Part shown: piece after piece, positions 605 through 59,850 of the stretch | How the letters are laid out: the number at the start of each line of letters is the position of its first letter | How positions within the stretch are numbered: the first letter of the stretch is position 1 | The notes under the pieces: model-generated | What the model saw: the letters and a program-made list of their open reading frames with translations, nothing else | Database searches by the model: none | What the model was told of the DNA's origin: nothing | Assembly: GCA_016874775.1 (NCBI GenBank) | Contig: VGTJ01000001.1 | Location: forward strand, 40,887 to 104,886 | DNA from: Deltaproteobacteria bacterium | Lineage (GTDB): Bacteria > Desulfobacterota > Binatia > Bin18 | Length of the DNA: 64,000 bases | Direction of reading: 5' to 3' | Made by a program: the position numbers and the translations under genes

Positions 605-696
605 CGACCCTCCTTTTTTTCTGCGGCAAACCAGTCGGCGGGATTGTAGCGGGAGTACCGTTGATTCCGCAAGGCGCTGGGAAACACAGAGGCGAA

Positions 697-775
697 CCGG
701 GGAAACGGTGAATCGGGGAATCGGTGACAAGGAAGAAAAAGGTTTCTTTCCTCTCCGATTCTTTTTCTTCTCCGT
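697..775. repeat. intergenic repeat family, copy 1 (ggggaaacggtgaatcggggaatcggtgacaa...ctctccgattc)
   Basis: It lies in the divergent region between the MFS and EamA genes and shares the core with the copies near 4212 and 59729. Confidence 0.6.
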
Positions 776-2836: not shown

Positions 2837-4189
2837 TCAGGCGACGGGTGGTGCCTGGCGGAAATCCAGTACGCTCTCACACCATTGCCCGATGGCTAAC
2901 AAGCGTTCTTCGGTAAACGCACCACTCATGAGTTGAACGCTGAATGGCAAGCCATTAGCACTGACACCAGAGGGCAAACCAAGACTTGGAATGCCACTGA
3001 AACTTGCCGGACCGTTGAAGGTCGGATCGCCGGTCGCACCCAGGCCGTGCGGCGCAGGGGCTGGAGTAGAGGGAGTCAGCAGCGCATCGACCCTCTGGCA
3101 CAGAGCGTTCATCTCGTGGCGAAACTGTTGCTGATGACGACGGATTTCGATGCATTGAGTCGCGGTTATGGTACGGCCTTTTTCGATCAGGTCCTGCATC
3201 TGCTGGCTGTAGCGCGCTTTGTGTTGTGTATATCGCTCTCGGTGGGAGACCGCGGTCTCGACTTGCAGCATGGCAAAATGCGCATCGAGTTCACCGGCAA
3301 AACTCGGTGGCATTTGCACTTCTTCGATCGTCGCCCCAGCACGAGCAAACCGTTCGGCCATCGCTTCAACATGCTTGCGGGTTTCCTCATTTGCCTTTTC
3401 GAGGAAGAAGTCGCGCACGAGACCAAGCCGAGGAGCTTTGGGGGCACGTAGGCCGTTCGTGTAGCTGGGCACCGGCACCTTCTCAGTCGCTGGGTCGAGG
3501 GGATCATACCCTGCCAATACTTGTAGCAGCAAGGCAATGTCACTGACAGTGCGAGCAAACAACCCGACGTGATCGAGGCTCCAGGAGAGCGCGAAGAGTC
3601 CATGGGCGCTGACGCGCCCATATGTTGGTTTCAAACCGACGCAGCCACAATAGGCTGCCGGTCGAATCGTCGAGCCATACGTTTGCGATCCCAGCGTTCC
3701 TGGGCACATCATCGCGGCTACCGCTGCAGCTGAACCACTACTTGAACCACCGGGCGTGTGTTCGAGGTTCCATGGATTGCGCGTCGGCGAAGGCGCAAGC
3801 GCAGCAAACTCCGTTGTCTGAGCTTTGCCAAGGATGATCGCACCGGCCTCTTTCAGCAATCGTACAGTAGTTGCATCGTGGTCCGGGATAAAATTCGCGT
3901 AGATTGGTGACCCCGCTGTTGTCTTCAATCCTGCCGTATAGAAGATGTCCTTGAGACCGATGGGAATGCCGTGCAGCGGACCACGATACTGCCCGCGTTG
4001 GGCTTCTTCCTCCCGCAGTCGGGCGGTTGCCAGTGCAACCTCGCGATTGACCGTCACCCACGCTTGTACCCGTGGTTCGAGGTGGTCGATCCGTTCAAGG
4101 CATGAGCGGACAAGGTCGACCGGGGAAAGCTGTTTGTTACGGATTTGCTCAGTCGCAGCGGTGATAGTCAACGTGTACAGTGCTGTCAT
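2837..4189 (-). CDS. amidase (amidase-signature family, GatA-like)
   Basis: 450 aa with the GGSSSGSAAAVAAMM amidase signature and a conserved Ser-cisSer-Lys core context. Confidence 0.9.
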   Translation of the reverse strand: MTALYTLTITAATEQIRNKQLSPVDLVRSCLERIDHLEPRVQAWVTVNREVALATARLREEEAQRGQYRGPLHGIPIGLKDIFYTAGLKTTAGSPIYANFIPDHDATTVRLLKEAGAIILGKAQTTEFAALAPSPTRNPWNLEHTPGGSSSGSAAAVAAMMCPGTLGSQTYGSTIRPAAYCGCVGLKPTYGRVSAHGLFALSWSLDHVGLFARTVSDIALLLQVLAGYDPLDPATEKVPVPSYTNGLRAPKAPRLGLVRDFFLEKANEETRKHVEAMAERFARAGATIEEVQMPPSFAGELDAHFAMLQVETAVSHRERYTQHKARYSQQMQDLIEKGRTITATQCIEIRRHQQQFRHEMNALCQRVDALLTPSTPAPAPHGLGATGDPTFNGPASFSGIPSLGLPSGVSANGLPFSVQLMSGAFTEERLLAIGQWCESVLDFRQAPPVA

Positions 4190-4211: not shown

Positions 4212-4288
4212 GCAGAATCGGAGAAACGGGGAATCGGAGAAGCGGAGAATAAAAAAGGTGGGGCGGTCTCCGGTTCTCCGACTCCCCA
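4212..4288. repeat. intergenic repeat family, copy 2 (cagaatcggagaaacggggaatcggagaagcggagaat...ggttctccgactcccc)
   Basis: It lies between the VOC gene and the amidase start. Confidence 0.55.
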
Positions 4289-4778: not shown

Positions 4779-4905
4779 CGGTCAGCAATTAGCGTTCAGC
4801 TATCAGCTTTTTAGAAAACTATCAGCCTTCAGCTGTCAGCCTCCAGCTGAAACTTCTATTCTATCTTTGCTGGCTGACCGCTGGGCGCTGATAGCTGATA
4901 GCTTC
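4779..4905. repeat. second intergenic repeat family (gttcagctatcagc...cagctgaaa...gctgatagctgatagc), copy 1
   Basis: The terminal inverted repeats are agctatcagc/gctgatagct. A related copy occurs at 48543-48705. Confidence 0.55.
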
Positions 4906-4917
4906 TATCCTTTGTCA

Positions 4918-6240
4918 CTAATGTCGTGCGGCTGCAACCGCTGGGTTGTCAATGATCGCTTGGTTGGCGGCTTTGCCTTGTTTACTTTGGTGTTCGTAGC
5001 CTAACACGGGGATGAGGACTAACCCACCGATAACTTCACCAATACCGAGCGCAACGAAGCCCCAAAAGAACGTGCCACTTTGGTCGTACAAATAACCCAA
5101 CAACAGCGGGCCCATAACGCCACCAAGCCCACCAGCTAAGCCCCCGACGATACCGATTGCCGTGCCGAACACGTGGCCCGGAATGAGATCAAAGACCAGC
5201 ACGACGAAGCCATTTACTGCCGCGGCGTTGAGAAACAAGGCGAGGCTCATGAACGTAATGGTCGCAGTGGCGCTTTCACTCATTCCCATGGCGACGAGGG
5301 CAGGTAAGGTGAACACTGCCGCCACCAGAGAAACGAAGCTGCGACGATAGCCACGGTCACCAAGACCACCAGCGACGTACATCCCCGCGAACGCTGCCAG
5401 GTATGGAATGATGAGATAAATCCCACTCTTCATAATGGTGAAGCCACGTTCTTTGACCAGATACCCTGGGAACCAACTCATCGCCGTGAAGTAGACGCCA
5501 ACACCAAAGAAGGCAGAAATCGTCAGTAACCAAAATGCCGGGATTCCTGAGAGGATTGTCATCCGTTCGCGAAACGACAGCGAAGCAGCAGTATCACCGT
5601 GCGCATTGGCAGTAGCTGGTTCTGATGCGAATGCCTCTCGCACTTCCGCTTTCTCACTTTCTGAGACCCAGGGATGTTCAAGCGGAGTATCGCGCATGAC
5701 GACGGCAAACAGCACCATGACGCCGAGTGTCATAATGCCGACGATGACAAACATCATCCGCCAGTCCCACAAGTTGATGATCCAACCGACCAGTGGCATG
5801 CCGAACGCCACACCAAGATAGGCAAAACCGATGAAGATGCCGTAGGCGCGACCGCGCTCGGCGGGTAATAACCAGTTGTTTTGTAGTTTGTGATTGATGT
5901 TGACCGTGACGCCTTCGGTCAGGCCAAAGAGCAAGCGCACGACGGCAAACTGCCACAATGTCGAGCATGCTCCCGTGAGTGCAGTGAGAACGCTCCAGCC
6001 CAGAATCATCCAGGACGCGAAGTTGCGTAAGGGAATCCGATCGGAGACAAGACCACCAAAAAAATGGCCAAACAGAAACCCCCAGTAGTAGATGCTCAGA
6101 ATAACGCCTGTCTGCATGCCATCGAACTTCAGCTCGTCCATGATCCGCGGCGCGGCTAAGGAGATATTGACGCGGTCAAGCACGAGGAAGAATGAAACCA
6201 CCCATAAGACGCTAATGACGAGCAACCGCGTACCATGCAT
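4918..6240 (-). CDS. MFS transporter (ACS family)
   Basis: 440 aa with 12 predicted TM segments. LVLDRVNISLAAPRIMDELKF...GFLFGHFFGGLVSDR is typical of the MFS ACS family. Confidence 0.85.
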   Translation of the reverse strand: MHGTRLLVISVLWVVSFFLVLDRVNISLAAPRIMDELKFDGMQTGVILSIYYWGFLFGHFFGGLVSDRIPLRNFASWMILGWSVLTALTGACSTLWQFAVVRLLFGLTEGVTVNINHKLQNNWLLPAERGRAYGIFIGFAYLGVAFGMPLVGWIINLWDWRMMFVIVGIMTLGVMVLFAVVMRDTPLEHPWVSESEKAEVREAFASEPATANAHGDTAASLSFRERMTILSGIPAFWLLTISAFFGVGVYFTAMSWFPGYLVKERGFTIMKSGIYLIIPYLAAFAGMYVAGGLGDRGYRRSFVSLVAAVFTLPALVAMGMSESATATITFMSLALFLNAAAVNGFVVLVFDLIPGHVFGTAIGIVGGLAGGLGGVMGPLLLGYLYDQSGTFFWGFVALGIGEVIGGLVLIPVLGYEHQSKQGKAANQAIIDNPAVAAARH

Positions 6241-6445
6241 GGAGACCCCTCCTTAGTTAGGCTCACGTTCGGATGGCAAACTGGCAGGCGCACTCTAGCG
6301 AGGTGTATTCTGCTTGACAACGGTGTAGGGTGGGAACGTAGAACGTGGTGCGTGGTACGTGAAAGCTTGGGCCGAGAGGCTAGGGGCTCGGGGCTTGTTT
6401 TCACGCACCACGTAACACGCAACATCTGCAATTAAGGAATAAACT

Positions 6446-8275: not shown

Positions 8276-9088
8276 ATGGCTGAACCAGCCCTGTTGTATG
8301 AAAAACGTGATGGCATCGCCTATCTCACCATCAATCGCCCTGACAAACGTAACTCGTTTAGCCCGGAAGTGCTGTGCCGCATGGCCGACGCCTGGCAAGA
8401 TTATGCGGCGGATGACTCACTGCGTGTGGCCATCATTACCGGCGCGGGTGATCTTGCCTTCAGTGCAGGTGCGGATTTGGGTCGACTGACGCCATTAACC
8501 TCCGGCGCACGTAAGCCGGAAGATGAATGGGATCACCGGTTGTTGGCCCATCCTGAACTCGGTCAGCAGGCAACCTTGCGCGGTATGGCGATGTATAAGC
8601 CGGTCATTGCGGCGATCAATGGTTTTTGTTTGGCCGGTGGCTGTGAGTTGATTCAAGCGACGGATATTCGTATCGCCGCTGAGAAGGCAACCTTTGCCTT
8701 GACCGAAGTGAAGTGGTCACTCATGCCGTTTGCTGGTTCGATGACACGACTGCCACGACAAATTCCCTACTGCAAAGCCATGGAAATCATGCTGGTGGGC
8801 GATACCTTCGATGCGCAAGAAGCGTATCGCATCGGTCTGGTGAATTACGTCCTGCCAGCGAATCAGGTGATGGCAAAAGCCGAAGAATTGGCCCGCAAGA
8901 TTACTGAGAACGGCCCACTCGCAGTGCGCAGAATTAAACAGGTCGTGCTCAATGCCCTCGGTCTACCGCTCGACGAAGGGTTCAAGCTCGAAAATGCCGC
9001 AGCGAAAGAGATCTTAGCGACGGACGACGCAAAAGAAGGTCCTCGGGCATTCATGGAAAAGCGAAAGCCGAAGTACACGGGGAAGTAG
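8276..9088 (+). CDS. enoyl-CoA hydratase/isomerase (crotonase family)
   Basis: 270 aa. ITGAGDLAFSAGADL and a later FCLAGGCEL motif form the crotonase oxyanion-hole pattern. Confidence 0.9.
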   Translation: MAEPALLYEKRDGIAYLTINRPDKRNSFSPEVLCRMADAWQDYAADDSLRVAIITGAGDLAFSAGADLGRLTPLTSGARKPEDEWDHRLLAHPELGQQATLRGMAMYKPVIAAINGFCLAGGCELIQATDIRIAAEKATFALTEVKWSLMPFAGSMTRLPRQIPYCKAMEIMLVGDTFDAQEAYRIGLVNYVLPANQVMAKAEELARKITENGPLAVRRIKQVVLNALGLPLDEGFKLENAAAKEILATDDAKEGPRAFMEKRKPKYTGK

Positions 9089-9159
9089 GACTCCTCAGTC
9101 AGAAAATGTTGAGCAGGCATATAGGAATCCTCAATGAAATGGCAACAAGCAAATACAGA

Positions 9160-9250
9160 CCACCCTTCGACAAGCTCAGGGTGTACGGGAGAGATACGGA
9201 AACGCTTGAACATTATCCGTTCGTGCTGAGCCTGTCGAAGCATGAACCGC
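9160..9250. repeat. palindromic intergenic repeat of the PFVLSLSKHE spurious-ORF type
   Basis: Arms cttcgacaagctcagg (9165-9180) and ctgagcctgtcgaag (9226-9240) are inverted repeats with one mismatch. The element sits between convergent genes and generates the fake ORF 8863..9252. Confidence 0.6.
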
Positions 9251-9713
9251 ATTCATACGGCACCTCACATTTAGGAGCCCTATAGTAACCAGCATCGTAG
9301 TGGAGAGTTAAGAGTTAAGAATGGAGGAAAAGAGGGCTCAGCTCTTTCTCAGTTCTTTTTCTGACTCTTCACGCTTCACTCTTAATTCTTCACTGACTTC
9401 CTATTGTTTACTTGTTGTCTGTAACGCCAACTCATCGAGCAATGTCTTGGCTGCCTGTAAGTCGGCAGTGTCGAACCCTTCAGTAAACCATGCGTACACT
9501 TCAGATAACATCCTGTGTGTTTCAGCCAGAGCTGGCAGTTGCGCAGATGATGGTGCGTGAGTCGTGTTGCGTGATGTCCGCTCATCTACTTGATGTTGTC
9601 GCAACCTCGCGAGACTCATCACGGCGCGCAACTCTAGCGATTTGGCGTGCTGTTGTTGAGCGATAGCGATAGCTTTGAGGAAACACTCCTCCACCTCCCG
9701 CATCACCCCATTG

Positions 9714-9786
9714 GGGGCTAGAGACTTGAGACTAGGGGCTTGTGGGGAAAAACCAGTCTCTAACCTCCAGCCTCTAGCCTCCGCGA
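9714..9786. repeat. ~70-bp palindromic element (gagacttg...agcctctagcctcc), copy 1, in-frame inside the regulator TPR region
   Basis: It shares gagacttg, ggggcttg/ccaagcc and agcctctagcctcc with the copy at 12109-12180. It has terminal inverted repeats ggctagag/ctctagcc and encodes the peptide RGWRLETGFSPQAPSLKSLAPNG. Confidence 0.5.
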
Positions 9787-12108
9787 GCGTTAGCTCGCCC
9801 TTGAGCCGATACAACTCCGCTTCATAAAACCGTTCGCCGGTGCTGTCTGCGATCTTCAGTGCTTCTTCCAATAATGACAATCCTTCTACGGCCTGTCCGA
9901 CTTTGCCATCGGCTTCGGCTAGCATGGCCAAATACTGGGTGCGCTCGGATTCAGAACCGATCGCGCGCAATGCGTCGAGGCCTTCATGGATTCGTGCGAT
10001 CCCGGCCTCATCTTGGTCTCGCTCTGTGAGTGCCCAGCCGGAAAACAACGTGCCGACCGCTGTCCACAGCGGAAAGCCGTATTCTCGCGACAAGGTTAAG
10101 ATATCGTTCGCCCGTTCCTGCACAAGTTGTTCTTCGCGTTGAAAGCGATGAAACTGAGCTGAGAGTCCCAACGCTGTTGTATGCACGTGTGGATGAGAGA
10201 CTTCATGGGCAAGCGTCAGAGCCGCATTGTTCCGTTGGCGGGCTTGATCGGGATAGCCACGAAACCACAGCGTCCAGGCGGCAAAGGCGCGTGAGGCGAC
10301 ACCAGGATCATCGCCGTAGAGCAACGCAATCGTACGGTGTCGTTGCACATCATAAAGGGCGATGCTCTGGTGAGATGTTCCTGAGCTGTAACGAGATCGC
10401 CGAGCAGAAACAGTACGTAGCCAAGCATGCCGTGTGCGCCCATGAGTAACGTTTGGTCGTGGGCATGTTGCGCGAGCTGTAGCAGTTGGTTAGCCAATTC
10501 TCGTGCGATAGCGAATTGTCCGCGGACAACGTAGTGGCGATAGAGCCCTGCCAGCGCGGGAAAGAGGGGTGGGGTAACCCCGATTTCTTGACATAACGTT
10601 CGGGCCTCAGCATACACAGCTTCCACCTCGGGTGCGGCGTGGCCTTTGGCTGTGACTAACGAGCCGCCAAGAATGAGCCGTAAAGACAGCTCTTGCTGTT
10701 TCCGTTCTTGGCAGTCAGGGAGATGAGTCAGTAACGACAAGGCTTTGGTGAAGTGCAGGATTGCTTCTTGGTGCGCATGGCGTCGAGTTGCGTTCCTGCC
10801 TGCTTGCCACCGATGGTGCAGCGCGCGAGGATAATCCCGTCCTTGCTCGAAACGTATGGCCAGTTCGGTTGCGATTTCTCGTGCCCGGCTTCCATACGCG
10901 GCTTCGAGTTGTTCGCCGATACGTTGATGTTGGATGATGCGTTGGCGTGCTGTGAGACGCTCAGCGAGAACTTGCTGATGCAAGACATGGAAGAAGCGAT
11001 AACGGGAAGTGACCATGCCATTGGGCCACTCTTCGGTGCCTTTGCGTTGGAGAAACAGGGACTGACGTACGAGTCCCTCACAGCTGGCTTCTACTGCATC
11101 GATGTCCTCGCTCGCGCCTGCGGCAACTGCGGCAGCGGAAAACTCTCTTCCGATGATGCTTGCCGTTTGCAGTATGCGTTGCGCACTGTCGCTGACCTGG
11201 TCAATCTGATGCTCGATGAAGGCATGGAGACCACCGGGAATATCGAGATATTGCACCGTTTGCTGGAAACTCCAGTCACCGCCGCGACCGTCATTCACTT
11301 CTCGTGACACAATATAGTCCACTAAACTGACCATAAACAGCGGGTTGCCCTCTGTACGTTGATGAATCATCTGGGCGAATTGTTGGAGTCCAGACTGCAC
11401 GGCGGGTGCAGCGATAGGGAGACGCGTGGTGATGTAGTCTGCAACCGCAGCGAGTGAGAGCGGCTTGATGACCAGCTCTTCGCAATAGTGGTGAACCTGG
11501 AGATCGTACTTCAACGATTTTAGTGGATGGTTATGCTGTTCTACATCGCTCAGGCGATAGGTCGCGATGATGAGGAGCCGCGCAGGCTGCGGACGACGTG
11601 CGACATACGACAGGAGATCAAGGGTGGCGCTGTCACTCCAGTGAAGATCGGCAAAATGAAACACGAGTGTCTGTTGCTCGGTCAGTGCTTCCAACGCTTC
11701 AGCCAGTTCTCGCAGCATCCGTTCTTTTGTGGAGCTGAGCACACGGGGGCGCAGCGCTTCGAGTGTTTCGTTGGTCACGACGCTCGGCATCTGCGCGAGC
11801 CAGGTCGGTGCGTTCCGACTCAGCGTGTCAACGATGTGTTCATGATCTGGTGCGCGGCAGAGTTGCGTCAATGCTTCCAGCACTGGCATGTACGGCTCGC
11901 CTTCACCAAACTGCGCCAGGCAGTGGCCGCGCGAAATAGCAACGTCCGCGTGGCCCGTCAATCGTTCTAGAAATGTTTCCACGACCGTGGTCTTACCGAT
12001 CCCTGCTTCGCCAGTAACGAACACTATCTGGCGTCTCCCAGTTTTGGCAGCACCTAACCAAGAGTGAAGTTGTGTCAGTTCTGCGTTGCGGCCAACGAGA
12101 CTGGAGGC

Positions 12109-12180
12109 GAGAGACTTGTAGGTTTGCAGGAGGGGGAGGGAGGACCAGCCCCAAGCCTCTAGCCTCCAGCCCCAAGGTGG
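12109..12180. repeat. ~70-bp palindromic element, copy 2, coinciding with the frame switch between the winged-helix and ATPase parts of the regulator
   Basis: It encodes PWGWRLEAWGWSSLPLLQTYKSL in the downstream frame, while the upstream winged-helix frame reads through it out of register. Confidence 0.5.
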
Positions 12181-12511
12181 GCGGCGTGGAGGTGGCAAGC
12201 GGAGCGATAAACTGATACCCGCGTCGATGCACGGTCTCAATAAACTGTGGAGCCTTTGCCTGGTCAGCTAAAGCTTCACGAATTTCGCGAATGCAAACTT
12301 TCAGGACAGCAGCACTCACACGAACATCCGGCCACAGCGCTGCGAAGAGTTCCTCTTTGGTGACTAACTGACCAGCGCGTCCGACGAGATAACACAATAC
12401 TGAGAAGGTTTTGGGTTTAAGCGAGAGTTTTTCAGTGTCACGCCACAGATGCGCGTTGGCCACATCGAGACGAAACGCCCCAAAGCTGACGGTGTGGGTA
12501 TCAATCATGTG

Positions 12512-12555
12512 CTTACCAAAAATTTACCGTACGTTTACCGTAAACTTACCGTAAT
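12512..12555. promoter_or_regulatory. four phased 11-bp direct repeats (YTTACCRWAAN; core TTACCGTA)
   Basis: The repeats are cttaccaaaaa / tttaccgtacg / tttaccgtaaa / cttaccgtaat, with an exact one-helical-turn period. They lie 3 bp from the regulator start codon and upstream of the Cys-rich secreted protein gene. OmpR/SARP-type winged-helix regulators bind phased direct repeats. Confidence 0.45.
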
Positions 12556-12865
12556 TATTCGATTTTTTCCATCTTCTGGAAGGTGTGAGCCGTAAACCCT
12601 CATGTGAGCAGGAGGAGAAAAATGACAAACGAAAAGTGCCGGTCCCTGAAAAAGGTTGGTCGTGCTCCACCGTAGGCCCTCATCACGCGGCTATACATAT
12701 AGGAACAACGACAACAAACACAATTTAGGAGTAACCCTCATGAGCATCAAGATACCACAGGCAAAAACCGACGAACCCTATTCTCTCAACCCACAACTGT
12801 ATGGAGGACATATCATGAAGACATTAGCAGCATCTCTAGACTCACAATTCTTAGGAGAACTCTCT

Positions 12866-24506: not shown

Positions 24507-24617
24507 TCAGTAGGAAAAGAAGGGCATCCGTAGGCAGAGTAGAGGAAGGAGCATTGATCATGAGCACTATTTTATGCTGGCTACTGGCTACCGACTACTG
24601 GCTACTCTGAGGTTTGT

Positions 24618-26137: not shown

Positions 26138-26226
26138 CGTCATTCCCGCGAAAGCGGGAATCTAGGATAATTAACCTCTAGCCTTGACTTGAAGTTCCTG
26201 GATGCCCGCCTTCGCGGGCATGACGG
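26138..26226. repeat. composite two-hairpin intergenic element (gtcattcccgcgaaagcgggaatc, spacer, cctggatgcccgccttcgcgggcatgacgg), copy 1
   Basis: It sits inside the gcvH-gcvPA intergenic region. A second copy with the same two-part layout occurs at 57453-57543. Confidence 0.6.
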
Positions 26227-26297: not shown

Positions 26298-27647
26298 ATG
26301 CGTTACATTCCCCATACTGACAGTGATATTGCGTTCATGCTGGCAACAATCGGTGCGGGCTCAGTTGCTGACTTATTTGCGCACCTGCCTGAAGCTCTCC
26401 GTTCACAAGCAGCGATCGATTTGCCGCTTGGCTTATCTGAAGCCGGAGTGCGATCTCGCTTAACGGAACTGGCAGCGACAAACCGTGTCAGTCCCGAGAC
26501 CGTCGCGTTTCTTGGAGCAGGAGCCTACCCGCACTTCGTTCCTGTAGTGGTCGACCAGATCATTCAACGTTCTGAATTCGCCACTGCCTATACGCCCTAC
26601 CAACCTGAAGTGAGCCAGGGAACGCTACAGACGATTTTCGAGTTTCAGTCACTGGTTGCGATGTTGTTCGGTTTAGACGTTGCCAATGCCAGTATGTATG
26701 ATGGTGCGTCGGCGACTGCAGAAGCTGTGTTGATGACCAAACGCCTGCTGCCACAACGGACGACAGTGCTCGTGGCGCGCTCGCTCCATCCGCAATATCG
26801 GCAAGTGATTCAGACCTATCTTGATGGCGTATCTGGCTTACAGATTGTCGAGATCCCGTGGGGAGCAGATGGACGGGTGGATCTCTCTCAATTGTCACGC
26901 CATTTAGATAACACCGTCTGTGGTGTCCTTGTCGGCTATCCCAATGTGTTTGGTGTGGTTGAAGATGTTGCCGCTATTAGTGAGGCGGCCCATAAAGCTG
27001 GCGCACTGATGGCAACGTCAACTGCTGAGGCGCTTGCGTTAGGATTGCTCAAATCTCCAGGTGAACTGGACGTCGATATTGCTGTCGCCGAAGGGCAGAG
27101 CTTCGGCATTCCGGTGTCATATGGTGGCCCTGGGGTCGGACTCTTTGCGTGTCGTGAACGTTTCTTGCGGAGTATGCCGGGACGCCTGGCCGGTGAAACC
27201 GTCGATCATGATGGGCGCCGCGGTTTTGTCTTGACACTCTCCACGCGTGAACAACATATTCGTCGCGAGAAAGCGACTTCCAACATTTGTACGAACCAGG
27301 GGCTCTGCTCGTTGGCAGCAACTGTCTATCTCTGTCTCATGGGAAAACAGGGACTGCGAGAGCTTGCCGAACGGAATGTCAAGAAAAGCCACTATGCGTG
27401 CGACTTGTTGACGCAAACCGCCAATTACCAACAGCAATTCTCTGCACCCTTCTTTAACGAATTCGTGGTGAACGTGCCGAATGCGCGTGCCACATGGCAG
27501 CGATTACAGGGGCAAGGGATTGTTGCCGGAGTGGTGCTTGAAGATTGGTACCCTGAATTGAAAGACTGTTTGCTATTGTGCGTGACGGAGATGCATACTC
27601 GTGGTGAGATTGAACAGTTAGCAGATGAACTGAAACGTAATGCGTAA
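26298..27647 (+). CDS. gcvPA: glycine dehydrogenase (decarboxylating) subunit 1
   Basis: The start is at the internal ATG 26298, giving MRYIPHTDSD.... It is a P-protein N-terminal subunit homolog. Confidence 0.9.
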   Translation: MRYIPHTDSDIAFMLATIGAGSVADLFAHLPEALRSQAAIDLPLGLSEAGVRSRLTELAATNRVSPETVAFLGAGAYPHFVPVVVDQIIQRSEFATAYTPYQPEVSQGTLQTIFEFQSLVAMLFGLDVANASMYDGASATAEAVLMTKRLLPQRTTVLVARSLHPQYRQVIQTYLDGVSGLQIVEIPWGADGRVDLSQLSRHLDNTVCGVLVGYPNVFGVVEDVAAISEAAHKAGALMATSTAEALALGLLKSPGELDVDIAVAEGQSFGIPVSYGGPGVGLFACRERFLRSMPGRLAGETVDHDGRRGFVLTLSTREQHIRREKATSNICTNQGLCSLAATVYLCLMGKQGLRELAERNVKKSHYACDLLTQTANYQQQFSAPFFNEFVVNVPNARATWQRLQGQGIVAGVVLEDWYPELKDCLLLCVTEMHTRGEIEQLADELKRNA

Positions 27648-27717
27648 AACGTAATACGTAACCGCCTCTCGTCCCCTCTTACGAATTACGGATGACGTGC
27701 AATTTGTGACAACAGCA

Positions 27718-29196
27718 ATGAAAAAAAGAACATTACTGGACGAATCTCTCATCTTCGAACGTAGCTCACCAGGCCGTGTCGGTTACTCATTGCCAGAAGA
27801 CGACCTGCCAGAAAGGCAACTCTTACAGGATGTTCCTGTTGATCTGTGCCGTACCGCGCTTGCGGATTTTCCTGAAGTCAGTGAAGGTGAAATCGTTCGC
27901 CATTTTACGCGCTTGTCGCAGTGGAATCTGAGCGCGGCGACGACGCTGTACCCGCTGGGCTCGTGCACCATGAAATATAACCCTATCGTCAATGAGTTAG
28001 TCGCACGGTTCGCTGGATTGGCCCAACTCCATCCTTTGGTGCCAGATGAGTTCGCCCAGGGAGCGCTTGCCTTGCTGTACGATCTTCAGCACCGCCTTGC
28101 CGAAGTCAGTGGTATGGATGCGATAAGTCTGCAGCCTGCAGCCGGTGCCCAGGGTGAACTGACGGGTATGAAGTTAATCCGCGCACATCATGTCGAGCAG
28201 GGGCGACCACGCAAGAAAGTCCTCATTCCTGGGAGTGCGCACGGTACGAATCCAGCCTCAGCCGCATTGTGTGGCTATACAGTGACAGAAGTTCCGACTG
28301 GGGTAGGTGGCATGCTTGAAGCAGCGACTGTCGCGAAGCATGTTGATGATGAAGTTGCAGCACTGATGGTGACAAATCCGAATACACTCGGCTTGTTTGA
28401 GCGCGAGATCGTGCAGACTTGTGAAGTGCTGCATGCGCGGGGCGCATTGGTGTACATGGACGGCGCCAACCTGAATGCGCTCATGGGTGTAGCGAAACCC
28501 GGTCATATGGGCGCAGATGTTATCCAGTTTAATCTGCACAAAACGTTCTCCACGCCACATGGCGGTGGTGGACCTGGGGCTGGTCCTGTCGGGGTCAAAA
28601 AGATTCTGGAACCATACTTGCCAAATCCACGGGTGGTGAAAGAACGTGGGCAGTATCGATGGAGCAATGACTTTCCTCGATCGATTGGCAAGGTTCGGTC
28701 ATTCTACGGCAACTTTGGTATTCTCGTTCGTGCCTATGCGTACATCCTGGCCATGGGAAGCGATGGACTGACTCAGGCAACGCACATGGCTGTGCTCAAT
28801 GCGAATTATCTGCGTAAACGCCTCGAACACGAATTCACCATTGCCGAAGCGACGCCGTGTATGCATGAATGCGTGTTCTCTGACCGTTCATTTACGCACT
28901 CGGGGGTGAAGACGCTAGATATCGCCAAACGTCTCCTCGACTATGGCTTCTATGCGCCCACGATCTATTTCCCACTGGTTGTGAGTGGTGCGTTGATGAT
29001 TGAGCCGACCGAGACTGAGAGCAAAGAAGCACTCGATGAATTTGCTGACGCACTGCTCGCCATTGCGCAAGAGATCAAAGACAACCCTGATACACTCAAG
29101 AACGCGCCGTTACTCACTCCCGTCAGCCGCCTCGACGAAACCCGCGCTGCACGGCATCCGGTGCTGCGGTGGCGGAAAGAACCAATGAAAAATTAA
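27718..29196 (+). CDS. gcvPB: glycine dehydrogenase (decarboxylating) subunit 2
   Basis: The PLP region is LHKTFSTPHGGGGPG. The start is probably at ATG 27718. Confidence 0.9.
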   Translation: MKKRTLLDESLIFERSSPGRVGYSLPEDDLPERQLLQDVPVDLCRTALADFPEVSEGEIVRHFTRLSQWNLSAATTLYPLGSCTMKYNPIVNELVARFAGLAQLHPLVPDEFAQGALALLYDLQHRLAEVSGMDAISLQPAAGAQGELTGMKLIRAHHVEQGRPRKKVLIPGSAHGTNPASAALCGYTVTEVPTGVGGMLEAATVAKHVDDEVAALMVTNPNTLGLFEREIVQTCEVLHARGALVYMDGANLNALMGVAKPGHMGADVIQFNLHKTFSTPHGGGGPGAGPVGVKKILEPYLPNPRVVKERGQYRWSNDFPRSIGKVRSFYGNFGILVRAYAYILAMGSDGLTQATHMAVLNANYLRKRLEHEFTIAEATPCMHECVFSDRSFTHSGVKTLDIAKRLLDYGFYAPTIYFPLVVSGALMIEPTETESKEALDEFADALLAIAQEIKDNPDTLKNAPLLTPVSRLDETRAARHPVLRWRKEPMKN

Positions 29197-29364
29197 AAAT
29201 GAAGAATGAAGAATTGGAAAAGGGAAAAGTACTGCTCTCTTTTTCCGTGGCCCCTTTCTGCATTTTTAATTCTTCCTTTTTCATTTTGTATTCTTGGCGC
29301 TTTCCTTGACAAAACTCTCGATTCACTCTAGGGGCTAGGTATCCTTGTTCGTAGGAGCAACTGT

Positions 29365-45731: not shown

Positions 45732-46589
45732 GTGGAAAAAGATATACCCTTCATAGAGAACAGCGAAGAGCGACCGAAGGATAACTTCTACCACGGTGTC
45801 ATCAGCAAGATTTTTTGGAGTAACGAGACTGGCGTTATTCATAGTGACAGCGGTAAAGAAATTCCTTTCATCTTTGCGTTCGTGACATTACTTGGTGCTC
45901 CGCGTCAGGACATCAACTTCCTGCGACCTGGGATGCGGGTCGGTTTTGATGTAGGGTGGACCTCTAAAGGACTCCGCGCCTCGATCATCAAAATTTACGA
46001 TCTCTATCAGGACGATATCGCACTAGAAGAGAATGGCGCAGGGGTTTCTGCTGAAAGCAGTGATCCCATTGCGTCAGACCACCCGATTAGCCGATATCGA
46101 CCGCCAGAGATACACGACGCTGCTGAACCGCCACGTTATCGTCAACGTCGTTCTCGGCCACGATCGCAGCCGCAAGAATCACGACCGCAAACACAAACAT
46201 CGCACGAACAAAACCGGCAAGAGGCTCATCCCCCAAAGCCAGAGTTCAGTTCAGATGGTCGTATGTCAGGGCAGCAACAGAGCCGCCCACATGGTCGTCC
46301 TGCGGGACAGGAACAACGCCGACCAGAACCACGTACGCAGGGGCAAGAACAACGCCGACCAGATCGACGTCAGCAAGGGCAAGAGCAAAGACGCTCCGAG
46401 CCACGCCATCAGATGCCGGGGCAGCACCGTGGAGATGCCCGCCCTCAAGGCCAACGCCGAGAGGAACAGCCCCGTTCCTCAGCGCCGCAGAATACTAGAC
46501 CGCCCGATTCTGCTCAAAAGTCTGATACCACGGCGCAACCGACAGACGAACGGTCGCGTCGGTCACGCCGTCGCCGCGGACGAAGGTAG
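45732..46589 (+). CDS. cold-shock-domain-like OB-fold protein with a long Arg/Gln/Pro/Glu-rich low-complexity tail
   Basis: The N-terminal ~100 aa (YHGVISKIFWSNETGVIHSDSGKEIPFIFAFV...RPGMRVGFDV) follow a cold-shock-domain beta-barrel pattern. The tail contains GQEQRRPEPRTQ-type 12-aa repeats encoded by 36-bp tandem DNA repeats at about 46290-46400. Confidence 0.55.
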   Translation: MEKDIPFIENSEERPKDNFYHGVISKIFWSNETGVIHSDSGKEIPFIFAFVTLLGAPRQDINFLRPGMRVGFDVGWTSKGLRASIIKIYDLYQDDIALEENGAGVSAESSDPIASDHPISRYRPPEIHDAAEPPRYRQRRSRPRSQPQESRPQTQTSHEQNRQEAHPPKPEFSSDGRMSGQQQSRPHGRPAGQEQRRPEPRTQGQEQRRPDRRQQGQEQRRSEPRHQMPGQHRGDARPQGQRREEQPRSSAPQNTRPPDSAQKSDTTAQPTDERSRRSRRRRGRR

Positions 46590-47307: not shown

Positions 47308-47775
47308 ATGGCAGAACAGCAACTCTATTTTGAAGATGTGACGATAGGTACCGCGCTTCCTGAAGTGCGCAAAATGCCATCGAATACCCTGTTGTTTCTC
47401 TATAGTGCCATCACCTGGAACCCGCAGCGAATTCACTTTGATAAAGATTTCACGCTATCCGAAGGCTATCGCGATATCATCGTGCATGGACCATTGCGGG
47501 GAGCGTTTCTCTCTCAACTGATGACGCGGTGGATCGGCGACGCAGGAATGCTCAAGAAACTCTCGTATGCGAATCGCGACATTGCCTATGTTAACGAGCC
47601 GCTTCTTTGTAAAGGAACGGTAACACGTACCTGGATCACTGACGGAAAAGGGTACGCTGAGTGTGAGATTTGGGCTGAAAATACTCAAGGGGTAAAACTC
47701 ACGTTGGGGAATGCCACTGTGATTCTGCCACGAAGGAGTCCTGAGTCCAAAGTCCAAAGTCCAAAGTCTTCGTAA
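47308..47775 (+). CDS. MaoC-like (R)-specific hydratase/dehydratase subunit
   Basis: YSAITWNPQRIHFDKDFTLSEGYRDIIVHGPL is the MaoC catalytic hotdog. It is paired with the upstream gene, as in HadAB-type heterodimers. Confidence 0.8.
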   Translation: MAEQQLYFEDVTIGTALPEVRKMPSNTLLFLYSAITWNPQRIHFDKDFTLSEGYRDIIVHGPLRGAFLSQLMTRWIGDAGMLKKLSYANRDIAYVNEPLLCKGTVTRTWITDGKGYAECEIWAENTQGVKLTLGNATVILPRRSPESKVQSPKSS

Positions 47776-48542: not shown

Positions 48543-48705
48543 AGCGTTCAGCTATCAGCGCTCAGCGAAAACAGCGGGCAGTTGGCAACGATCAGCGGCA
48601 AAGATCTGTCCCTCTCAACGACCTGCGTCATCTGAGCAGCAACACCAGATTTGCTATATTTCCTTCTCTGGCTGAAAGCTGACTGCTGAAAGCTTGAGGC
48701 TGGCT
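48543..48705. repeat. second intergenic repeat family, copy 2 (gcgttcagctatcagcgctcagcg...ggctgaaagctgactgctgaaagc)
   Basis: It begins with the same 16-mer as copy 1, contains gctgaaag direct repeats, and sits upstream of the ferritin-like gene. Confidence 0.5.
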
Positions 48706-49544: not shown

Positions 49545-49600
49545 TCACCTATTTTCTTCCCTATGGCCTGTAGCCTACAGCCTATAGCCTTTGCCTCTCG

Positions 49601-57452: not shown

Positions 57453-57543
57453 CGTCATTCCCTCGGAAGCGAGAATCCAGGAGGAATAATCAAGAGCTTC
57501 TGCTTGAGGTCCCTGGACGCCCGCCTGCGCGGGCATGACGGAC
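57453..57543. repeat. composite two-hairpin intergenic element, copy 2 (gtcattccctcggaagcgagaatcc, spacer, ccctggacgcccgcctgcgcgggcatgacgg)
   Basis: It has the same two-part layout as the copy at 26138-26226. It lies between convergent genes. Confidence 0.6.
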
Positions 57544-59728: not shown

Positions 59729-59850
59729 CGGGGAAAAACAAAAGCTGAAATGGAGAATCGGGGAAACGGGGAATCGGTGACAATAGGGAACAGGAGTTTT
59801 TTATTCTCCGATTCTCCCTGTCTCCGCTTCCCCGCTTCCCCTTCTCCTCT
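59729..59850. repeat. intergenic repeat family, copy 3 (core ggagaatcggggaaacggggaatcggtgacaa ... ctccgattctcc)
   Basis: It shares the core with copies at about 697-775 and 4212-4288. The inverted arms are ggagaatcgg/ccgattctcc. It lies between the adaptor and RND pump genes. Confidence 0.6.

Follow-up and report, generated by a model that had tools for sequence, protein, structure and literature searches.

A regulator gene interrupted by two frameshifts, and the heptanucleotide-repeat tracts at its permissive positions

In this study, we report a large regulator gene that is broken twice within a 64-kb window (the whole stretch of 64,000 nucleotides analysed here). The locus is probably a recently inactivated natural copy of a conserved ~1,035-aa regulator, carrying two real mutations and resident, fast-evolving heptamer tracts. 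Both lesions were found to be real, the second is polymorphic, the tracts lie at fixed positions of the protein family, and other members of the family are broken at their tracts. We infer the exact lesion at the first break, slippage as its cause and a loss of function.

The broken gene itself is routine gene decay, and as a pseudogene it is ordinary; of greater interest are the heptamer tracts, unstable in frame and fixed in position. The locus also illustrates that separate public assemblies can validate or reject frame breaks in a metagenome-assembled genome. The features discussed below are as follows.

9401-12508, minus strand: whole disrupted gene, winged helix (wHTH) + AAA_16 (STAND-type) + TPR regulator
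11993-12508, minus strand: ORF1, 171 aa (NCBI annotation FJ147_00245)
10216-12240, minus strand: middle ORF, 674 aa, from the ORF list
9401-10348, minus strand: ORF3, 315 aa, C-terminal TPR-like helical repeats and conserved C-terminal module (...WFTEGFDTADL...), from the AlphaFold2 model and alignments
11566-12099, minus strand: AAA_16 P-loop NTPase domain
12513-12556, minus strand: four direct repeats upstream of the gene
12115-12166, minus strand: interval of frameshift 1, read from the sequence, its exact position within the interval being inferred
10371-10372, minus strand: frameshift 2, loss of a single G between these positions
12097-12173, minus strand: copy A, heptamer-armed hairpin in the interdomain linker
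9714-9786, minus strand: copy B, in-frame heptamer-armed hairpin in an inter-helix loop
6369-6395, plus strand: third GRGRCTN array, intergenic (array scan)
9304-9394, no strand assigned: intergenic hairpin with tandem 7-nt arms (repeat and folding scan)

Layout of the disrupted gene

A first-pass annotation, made from the sequence, had taken three overlapping minus-strand ORFs for the parts of one regulator. The ORFs were found as described, the peptides quoted from them (PWGWRLEAWGWSSLPLLQTYKSL and RGWRLETGFSPQAPSLKSLAPNG) are present in the translations, and the product of fusing the ORFs conceptually aligns along its full length with intact proteins of 1,010-1,040 aa. These orthologs (P0001, P0002 and P0003; 73, 71 and 68% identity) are each a contiguous single ORF through the linker, and the gene that follows each of them, as it follows the regulator of the window, is convergent and encodes a 270-aa enoyl-CoA hydratase. 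Together with the frames and the Pfam matches, this alignment and the common neighbour gene delimit the disrupted gene, whose stop codon lies at 9403-9401. ORF1 and ORF3 share one frame, from which the middle ORF is offset by +1. Among the 120 best matches listed by the protein search, none was a full-length protein of more than 73% identity to the regulator.

Pfam searches identified Trans_reg_C (PF00486) at residues 26-100 of ORF1 (E 1.9e-18). Residues 48-225 of the 674-aa ORF matched AAA_16 (E 7.9e-27), and matches to TPR were weak. The first ~100 aa of ORF1 are a genuine OmpR-type winged helix, which leads directly into a repeat-derived linker (30-53 aa); the remainder is an out-of-frame tail reaching into the AAA region. 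In a PDB sequence search, only the winged helix matched solved structures (OmpR/PhoB/CadC-type domains). Both Walker motifs of a STAND-type P-loop NTPase are present, Walker A as GEAGIGKT (12012-11989) and the Walker B region as FHFADLHWSD, in contrast to the nine aligned relatives, in which E or D precedes the invariant D. The AlphaFold2 model of ORF3 is all helical (mean pLDDT 92.8). The STAND layout, with an N-terminal effector and a C-terminal repeat sensor on a single polypeptide, is present in the orthologs, while the polypeptide of the window is broken twice.

The winged helix, AAA module, GEAGIGKT motif and TPR repeats proposed earlier were thus recovered, the last by weak matches; the proposed NB-ARC domain remained below threshold (Pfam, E 0.007). 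The label 'AfsR/SARP-like' holds for the domain architecture and not for family membership. Neither the three window ORFs (E up to 0.01) nor, among the intact orthologs, P0001 and P0002 (E up to 0.001) matched BTAD (PF03704), and because this domain was not detected the regulator, judged by its domain content, is not a strict SARP/AfsR member. Upstream of the gene, (A/T)(C/T)GGTAA is repeated four times at 11-nt spacing, the last repeat ending 5 nt before the ATG (TRF period 11 at 12520-12554). The same 4 x 11-nt repeats are found in the upstream regions of loci L001 and L002, and they are a candidate binding site for the winged helix.

Two frame breaks in the natural population

Alignment with intact homologs, which had been proposed as a check, mapped both lesions. 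The first frame switch had been assigned to the inside of a ~70-bp element, and this was upheld: it can be placed within 12200-12098 and probably within 12166-12115, the narrower interval lying within copy A. The segment from GAG (12166) to AAG (12117) is 49 nt long, i.e. 3n+1, versus 54 nt for its counterpart in copy B. The left arm of copy A yields EAR in the upstream frame and the right arm KSLA in the downstream frame, and the same phases are used by the in-frame elements in P0002 and P0003, by copy B and by ORFs of a Roseiflexaceae metagenome-assembled genome (MAG). With the closest relative at 73% identity, one extra C in the C5 run at 12136-12132 and one extra 7-nt unit are both candidate lesions.

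The exact 171-aa ORF1, which spans frameshift 1, was found on 11 contigs (nine places were shown, comprising 8 SRA runs and one JGI metagenome). Six of the contigs match the window without a difference (100% identity) along 1.5-7.3 kb. All 11 contigs were retrieved by the exact ORF1 sequence, a lookup blind to repaired alleles, and the lack of an intact near-identical allele is a result of the protein search alone. Among the assembled contigs covering the tracts, no indel or SNP was seen in 12097-12173 or 9714-9786, nor was there between assembled contigs any of the tract-length heterogeneity expected of a phase-variable contingency locus.

At frameshift 2 the window reads CATCTC-ACCAGAGC and strain L004 reads CATCTCGACCAGAGC. 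The deletion also occurs in the separate assemblies L006, L009 and JGI; the G is kept in L004/L005 and in the proteins P0126 and P0127, which read through the site as ...EHLDQSIALYD.... Strain L004 (encoding P0126) is 99.87% identical to the window, with 9 SNPs and the frameshift 2 indel over 7.4 kb. Frameshift 2 is polymorphic in the population, one of two closely related strains carrying the deletion. The earlier suggestion of a second indel unrelated to the repeat was correct, the surrounding sequence being non-repetitive. Its placement at 10320-10350 was not; that segment is merely the zone of ORF overlap, and alignment with orthologs and L004 puts the site at 10372/10371.

At 149 highly conserved positions the window deviates 8 times and each intact ortholog 7 times. 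Unique changes number 57-76 in the window against 39-53 per ortholog (relative-rate test, p 0.05-0.14), and these tests of long-term decay are at most marginal. Because the conserved-site deviations are close in number to those of the orthologs and ORF3 is still modelled at high confidence, the inactivation would be recent. The 874 codons downstream remain open in strain L004, which is also what is expected of a gene still in use. Between the strains, 3 non-synonymous and 1 synonymous SNPs in the regulator stand beside 2 and 1 in the neighbouring gene, numbers too few to judge.

Heptanucleotide tracts in the gene and its relatives

Sequence and folding analysis showed copy A to be a hairpin around a C-rich loop, whose arms (left 12173-12147, right 12123-12097) each comprise about three GRGRCTN heptamers. 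The second copy reported earlier was likewise found in frame: copy B (arms 9781-9755 and 9740-9714) is a heptamer-armed hairpin that keeps the reading frame and encodes EARGWRLETGFSPQAPSLKSLAPNG, a low-confidence coil at residues 198-211 of the ORF3 model. The copies have arms in common (GGAGGCTAGAGGCT ... CAAGTCTCTNGCC), and in both the complementary arms constitute terminal inverted repeats, as in MITEs. Both fold as hairpins (z -2.7 and -2.9; 2/200 shuffles fold equally well), with folding energies that do not favour the mRNA strand over the antisense strand. Neither is flanked by a target-site duplication, the flanks (CACCTT/GTTGGC for copy A, CTCGCG/CCCAAT for copy B) having no direct repeat.

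The 64-kb window has (GRGRCTN)3 arrays in just three places, 12097-12173, 9714-9781 and 6369-6395 (9 matches versus 0.09 expected), the last nested in the loop of another hairpin. The hairpin at 9304-9394 lies just 3' of the regulator stop; most intergenic regions of the window hold hairpins built like it, each from different heptamers. No Rfam family was found over the hairpins (window at the gathering threshold; E-value mode on 9000-12800; 14 loci with canonical elements), and a full-text literature search with the element sequence strings found no paper. HIP1, examined as a check for cyanobacterial origin, was not enriched (5 versus 2 expected).

An element of the copy A type also stands at this linker position in the intact orthologs P0002 (L002) and P0003, where it is read in the same phases and gives the peptide E(T)(K/R)...S(L/P)KP(Q/R)A. 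Copy B has counterparts of its type in the same loop of P0066, P0113, P0084 and L111, and a peptide of the EARDLRLE...ASSLKPLA type recurs in P0066, P0113 and L111. Across 114 relatives the linker (16-73 aa) and the loop (9-63 aa) are both hypervariable, with heptamer-type peptides, and a period-7 excess marks the DNA of both sites in 64 further relatives (linker, p 0.006; loop, p 9e-5). Hairpins are not general to the family at either site, where z-scores are indistinguishable from those of control segments; only period 7 is. Because the orthologs and the 114 and 64 relatives carry heptamer-type sequence there, the tracts are probably resident and not fresh insertions that broke the gene.

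The tracts appear prone to breaking the reading frame. In a survey of the best 80 of at least 475 family loci, frameshifts in L139, L155 and L166 and a stop in L110 are located in tracts, and only the stop in L171 lies outside them; gene-breaking lesions thus concentrate in tracts, in a small sample. Separately, L162 seems to change frame in the TPR loop, where its sequence is strongly diverged, and was kept out of the lesion count.

Hairpins of the same type are dispersed in many genomes (89 loci versus about 8 expected, our own estimate) of several phyla, mostly outside open frames and sometimes in frame, and several genomes contain multiple similar copies. In the Roseiflexaceae MAG, EARDLRLE...ASSLKPLA is encoded in frame in five long ORFs, which by motifs alone look LuxR/MalT-type and RecG-type; the element thus occurs in frame, with a conserved peptide, in seemingly unrelated genes, as RPEs do.

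The proposed course of events starts from a gene in which a variable linker joins an OmpR-type winged helix to an AAA_16 STAND-type NTPase followed by TPR repeats, and whose ~70-bp elements would be resident, fast-evolving tracts of 7-nt units. Such tracts occupy permissive positions family-wide: the linker between the domains, a surface loop ahead of the C-terminal module and, in some cases, a site after Walker A. They would be the weak points of the gene because gain or loss of a 7-nt unit by slippage, or a 1-base change in the loop, shifts the frame. A 3n+1 length change within the linker hairpin tract, present in every sampled contig of the population, would have come first and uncoupled the DNA-binding domain from the ATPase/sensor. 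The 1-base deletion in the TPR region would have followed later, in one of two closely related strains.

Alternative explanations and comparison with known systems

Two readings had been offered by the first-pass annotation, assembly errors and a mobile element. That errors of assembly or sequencing in a repeat-rich genome made both breaks in a gene that is really intact could be suspected from the metagenomic origin of the window and from the position of one break within a short-repeat tract. This reading is highly improbable, since frameshift 1 is found on the 11 separately assembled contigs and frameshift 2 recurs in L006 and L009 at a non-repetitive site, with the other allele in another strain. 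The tract, at about 28 nt per arm, is by our estimate shorter than typical reads, and no other split gene was seen in a rough map of about 54 window ORFs. Disruption by a miniature palindromic element (MITE- or RPE-like), its length not divisible by three, that hit the linker and left a sister copy in frame in the TPR loop is unlikely. The common arms of copies A and B, the dispersal of the hairpin type, its multiple copies per genome and the in-frame Roseiflexaceae hairpins, resembling in-frame Rickettsia palindromic elements (PMC10969869), speak for it. However, the type already stands at the linker in intact orthologs, and heptamer-type sequence occupies both sites across the whole family. 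Target-site duplications are lacking, two of the three loci of this type in 64 kb are within the regulator gene, and intergenic hairpins all built from different heptamers fit one self-copying family poorly. The break itself, moreover, changes the length of a resident tract by 3n+1.

The interruption might instead be functional, by programmed +1 ribosomal frameshifting on CCC-C in a PPPP stretch, a reversible heptamer on/off switch, or fission into a winged-helix protein and an AAA-TPR protein. Frameshift 1 is in every contig found, yet the 874 downstream codons are open in L004. Sites of the CCC-C type are prone to +1 slippage, and in the 0-frame CCT CCC CCT CCT a +1 slip at CCC-C (12136-12133) leads exactly into the downstream frame. 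The 7-nt unit is no multiple of three, and in the relative L139, too, the split falls in the linker. Ahead of Walker A lies a GTG with GGGAG upstream of it, and the JGI/Logan gene calls P0123, P0125 and P0126 start at this codon (VFVTGE/MFVTGE). Nevertheless, the shift is not conserved because the three orthologs are contiguous, and the tract frameshifts of relatives run in the other direction and at other sites. The tract is identical in all contigs, without length polymorphism, the 0-frame stays open for about 45 codons more, and the shift site has no stop or rare codon. A GTG start would cut off the first strand of the P-loop domain, and one of the two strains carries the second, inactivating deletion. 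We consider a functional interruption improbable, and favour recent inactivation of a natural copy.

It is a doubtful but broader proposition that heptanucleotide tracts, many of them (GRGRCTN)n repeats with hairpin arms, form an undescribed cross-phylum repeat class, which would invade or be maintained at constant permissive sites in this STAND-regulator family and other proteins, possibly as reversible frame switches, the regulator here being 'off' and not dead. The very large wHTH/cyclase + AAA_16 + TPR family of uncultured bacteria has fast tracts of 7-nt units at the same two or three positions. Should this apply more widely, annotation would be affected, split ORFs, "hypothetical" fragments and low-complexity inserts sharing one cause, and there would be a bearing on the origin and turnover of interdomain linkers and on whether heptamer tracts act as mutational switches beyond classical host-adapted pathogens.

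The regulator is similar to AfsR and the large SARP-type regulators of actinomycetes (wHTH + BTAD + NB-ARC + TPR) in its OmpR-type winged helix, P-loop STAND-type NTPase and C-terminal TPR. SARPs bind direct repeats at 11-nt spacing, and the window gene also has such repeats upstream; it differs in a sub-threshold NB-ARC and, like the intact orthologs, in the lack of a detected BTAD. Over its C-terminal ~800 positions, TIGR03903 ('TOMM system kinase/cyclase fusion protein') can be aligned with the AAA_16-TPR module (P0001, E 1.3e-79), although the 268 bits are far below the family cut-off of 705.75 and the N-terminal domain of the regulator is DNA-binding. Adenylate-cyclase/AAA_16/TPR proteins are also akin, the relatives P0008, P0012 and P0047 carrying an additional guanylate/adenylate-cyclase domain (PF00211).

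The tracts resemble contingency loci, which change by slipped-strand mispairing, in being intra-ORF tandem repeats with a unit that is not a multiple of three, so that gain or loss of units shifts the frame, and several family members are 'off' at them. They differ in having 3-4 imperfect units per arm, no length polymorphism in 11 contigs and a free-living environmental host. The STRR sequences of cyanobacteria are heptanucleotide repeats. Heptameric repeats are abundant in bacteria (PMC4692102), and the tracts described here share with these the tandem 7-nt units and the abundance in intergenic DNA, but the host is non-cyanobacterial and the units form inverted arms, also within coding sequence. 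RPEs and other MITEs can lie, as palindromic repeats, in frame within protein-coding genes (review PMC10969869; Coxiella MITEs PMC5896051). The heptamer palindromes likewise stand in frame at permissive positions, with the recurrent peptide EAR(G/D)(W/L)RLE...SLK(S/P)LA in several ORFs. In contrast, they measure ~45-75 bp against ~150 bp for the first-described RPEs, and they are distinguished from RPEs and MITEs by arms of tandem 7-nt units, hypervariable sequence, no observed target duplications and positions that are fixed across the protein family.

The split regulator gene and its intact orthologs

The regulator gene was found to be divided among three overlapping ORFs, of which ORF1 and ORF3 share one frame in a three-frame translation and the middle ORF is offset by +1.

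12508-11993, minus strand: ORF1, 171 aa; Pfam Trans_reg_C (OmpR-type winged helix)
12240-10216, minus strand: middle ORF, 674 aa; Pfam AAA_16 and weak MalT-like/TPR matches
10348-9401, minus strand: ORF3, 315 aa; weak Pfam TPR match

In Pfam searches of these ORFs, NB-ARC was sub-threshold only and no BTAD domain was found. A protein search with their conceptual fusion (1,038 aa) returned thousands of relatives, and the best full-length proteins, P0001, P0002 and P0003 (71, 69 and 67% identity in the search listing; 73, 71 and 68% in alignment), aligned with it end to end without further discontinuity, in agreement with the first-pass annotation, which had read the ORFs as a single regulator. 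A convergent gene for a 270-aa enoyl-CoA hydratase comes next after P0001, P0002 and P0003 and in the window (8276-9088), and four (A/T)(C/T)GGTAA repeats with 11-nt spacing stand just before the ATG in the upstream regions of the window and of the ortholog DNAs L001 and L002. P0001-P0003 thus qualify as orthologs that have stayed intact, and only the window's lineage carries the breaks. The repeats (window 12513-12556, ending 5 nt before the ATG; L001 about 5605-5650; L002 about 5953-5998) are likely to form the binding site of the winged helix. Through P0004 (FJ147_00240), the protein search also showed the window to be part of a metagenome-assembled genome (MAG) named "Deltaproteobacteria bacterium" by NCBI.

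Two frameshifts, their reality and their consequences

DNA alignment with L001 and L002 showed that frameshift 2, the break in the TPR region, is one base missing between 10372 and 10371; the break had been correctly described as lying outside any repeat, but its placement at 10320-10350 was in error, the true site lying 20-50 nt upstream. The cluster of the middle ORF includes P0126 (874 aa) and P0127 (772 aa), in which this site is uninterrupted, reading ...AQEHLDQSIALYDVQRHRT..., and the contig carrying them (L004/L005, run ERR14789947) shares 99.87% identity with the window, from which nine SNPs and one G separate it. The deletion was present in contigs L006 (SRR7990526) and L009 (SRR7053297), both 100% identical to the window. 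Since the base is lost in these and kept in L004/L005, frameshift 2 is a genuine, polymorphic mutation in non-repetitive sequence, an ordinary indel. One of the nine SNPs (12534) falls within the upstream repeats. Contigs L007, L008 and L011, from separate assemblies, all terminate at window 10597-10606, ~80 nt before the SNP at 10679 (G/A) and ~230 nt before the polymorphic deletion; these samples may contain both strains.

The exact 171-aa ORF1, which spans the region of frameshift 1, was located on 11 contigs by a lookup of the exact sequence, to which a repaired allele would be invisible; the nine places shown (eight SRA runs, one JGI metagenome) included the strain without frameshift 2. 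No full-length protein closer than 73% occurred among the best 120 protein-search matches. We therefore conclude that frameshift 1 is real, that it arose before the two strains diverged and that it is fixed, or nearly so, across the data sampled. A rough ORF map of the window (about 54 ORFs) showed no further gene that looked split, which argues against generally poor sequence quality. Assembly error, one of two readings offered by the first-pass annotation, was rejected, as separate contigs repeat both breaks and the base of frameshift 2 is polymorphic.

Conservation bounded frameshift 1 to 12200-12098, in the linker between winged helix and AAA domain that holds one heptamer-armed element (copy A). 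Its arms enclose a C-rich loop.

12173-12147, minus strand: copy A left arm, GGGGCTG GAGGCTA GAGGCTT
12123-12097, minus strand: copy A right arm, CAAGTCTCTCGCCTCCAGTCTC

The left arm reads LEARGLGL in the upstream frame and the right arm YKSLASS in the downstream frame, and the same phases (E-A/T-R/K ... S-L/P-K-S/P-L/Q/R-A) recur in the linker element of P0002 (DNA, L002) and P0003 (protein only), in the second element (copy B) and in in-frame copies of other genomes. As the arms are read in these shared phases, the lesion most likely lies between them. The span from GAG (12166) to AAG (12117) is 49 nt, or 3n+1, and the equivalent span of copy B is 54 nt; either one C too many in the C5 run (12136-12132) or a surplus 7-nt unit would explain the lesion.

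Frameshift 1 uncouples the winged helix from the ATPase/sensor. Upstream of Walker A, no convincing start codon is available to the middle frame, and translation from the GTG chosen by the JGI and Logan gene calls would yield a truncated P-loop domain. Functional readings of the interruption, taken all together, are improbable; in one form, a programmed +1 shift on CCC-C within the PPPP stretch would return translation exactly to the downstream frame, but it is not conserved in the orthologs and nothing beyond that exact restoration speaks for it. Decay of the regulator is slight, the window departing at 8 of 149 highly conserved positions and each intact ortholog at 7, with 57-76 unique changes in the window lineage versus 39-53 in the orthologs (p 0.05-0.14). 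Walker B reads FHFADLHWSD in the window; in the nine aligned relatives, the residue preceding the invariant D is acidic. Frameshift 2, carried by one strain, is consistent with relaxed selection once frameshift 1 had occurred.

Heptamer tracts within the regulator family

The window has (GRGRCTN)3 arrays at three places only (copy A, 12097-12173; copy B, 9714-9781; intergenic, 6369-6395; 9 matches versus 0.09 expected), and copies A and B fold as hairpins (z -2.7 and -2.9), so that the two ~70-bp palindromic elements first noticed here are both real. No matching family was found in Rfam, and a literature search found no paper containing the element's sequence. Four lines of evidence disfavour a fresh insertion: intact P0002 and P0003 carry an element of the copy A type at the identical linker position, and the orthologs can be aligned over the right half of the loop element; the linker (16-73 aa) and the TPR surface loop (9-63 aa) are hypervariable among 114 full-length relatives; 7-nt periodicity is in excess at both sites in the DNA of 64 further relatives (p 0.006 in the linker, 9e-5 in the loop); and no target-site duplications were seen at the elements. 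The proposed pseudogenisation by a mobile element was thus not borne out, and the favoured explanation is a length change within a heptamer tract already resident in the linker. Linker and loop peptides resemble translated heptamer arrays (VVSSQ...QLTTDN, SRFQVS...LETWNLKLET, EARGWRLE...SLKPQA); hairpin potential at these positions is not general across the 64 relatives. In an AlphaFold2 model of ORF3 (pLDDT 92.8), the copy B peptide forms a helix end and low-confidence coil (residues 198-211), which points to a permissive surface loop.

In a tblastn survey of 80 family loci from metagenomes, clear frame changes occurred only at heptamer-type tracts, in the linker (L139) and in a third tract immediately following Walker A (L155, L166); in L110 the loop tract contains an in-frame stop, L171 has the only lesion away from tracts, and L162 a possible, ambiguous further frame change at the loop. 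Because the tracts make up an estimated tenth of the gene or less, four of five lesions within them are unlikely by chance. Frameshift 1 of the window is a further case. As a pseudogene the locus is unremarkable; it is the tracts that merit systematic study.

Long in-frame gaps in the tblastn matches of the relatives L116 (3145-3722, about 577 nt, linker) and L172 (4594-4751, about 156 nt, after Walker A) suggest that inserts of far greater size can be accommodated at the tract positions. In the family member L111, two closely similar GGCTAGA-type elements lie in frame, at 1336-1406 after Walker A (RDWRLETSSSAPQASSLKPLAPS) and 3562-3632 in the TPR loop (EARGWRLETSPSSTQASSLKPLAS), with another heptamer type in its linker; intragenic copies likewise resemble each other in the window. 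A perfect (AGTCCAA)x3.6 array at window 47744-47768 supplies the final codons of ORF 47308-47775 (...SPESKVQSPKSS*), and its SKVQSPKS peptide type also occurs in the family's loop tracts.

Related repeats and known systems

Most intergenic regions of the window contain a long hairpin with arms of tandem 7-8-nt units.

Intergenic hairpins of the window
694-762
4214-4261
4822-4903
6343-6424
9304-9394
24577-24606
27633-27661
29184-29295
48543-48568
49572-49590
59747-59846

None matched an Rfam family, and they may be terminators or mRNA-end structures. The unit differs per hairpin, so locally generated or fast-diverging repeats fit better than one self-copying family. Scanning of species-representative genomes for GGCTAGAGGCT-N(20-50)-AGTCTCTNGCC gave 89 loci (about 8 estimated by chance) in Acidobacteriota, Planctomycetota, Roseiflexaceae, Sulfuricellaceae, Anabaena and others, most with no open frame across; in those genomes the hairpins may be mobile. 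A Roseiflexaceae MAG has stop-free variants in frame in five long ORFs, invariably EARDLRLE...ASSLKPLA; by motifs only, they include apparent LuxR/MalT-type regulators and an apparent RecG-type helicase. In seven Sulfuricellaceae and Sulfuricella MAG loci (L020, L021, L022, L028, L042, L073, L086), GGCTAGA-type arms surround a GC-rich stem-loop (CGGCGCG...CGCGCCG). In L028 and L073 a T run comes next, and the whole resembles an intrinsic terminator extended by heptamer arms.

An 89-nt dispersed repeat (window 26138-26226 and 57453-57541, 79% identical; similar in L001 at about 8975-9085) comprises two small hairpins, ATTCCCGCGAAAGCGGGAAT and ATGCCCGCCTTCGCGGGCAT, framed by CGTCAT...ATGACGG, and is a second, distinct repeat family, more MITE- or REP-like in appearance. 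A 36-nt tandem repeat (46304-46388, 2.4 copies) encodes the Q/R/P/E-rich low-complexity C-terminal half of ORF 45732-46589 (GQEQRRPEPR repeats).

In architecture the regulator resembles AfsR-type regulators; unlike SARPs, it is without BTAD, the SARP-defining domain. Among solved structures, only the winged helix has a sequence match. The AAA-TPR module shows similarity to the C-terminal region of TIGR03903, with a score well below the TIGR03903 cut-off. The in-frame palindromes recall Rickettsia palindromic elements (PMC10969869), but are of a different size, have heptamer arms and occupy fixed positions across a protein family.
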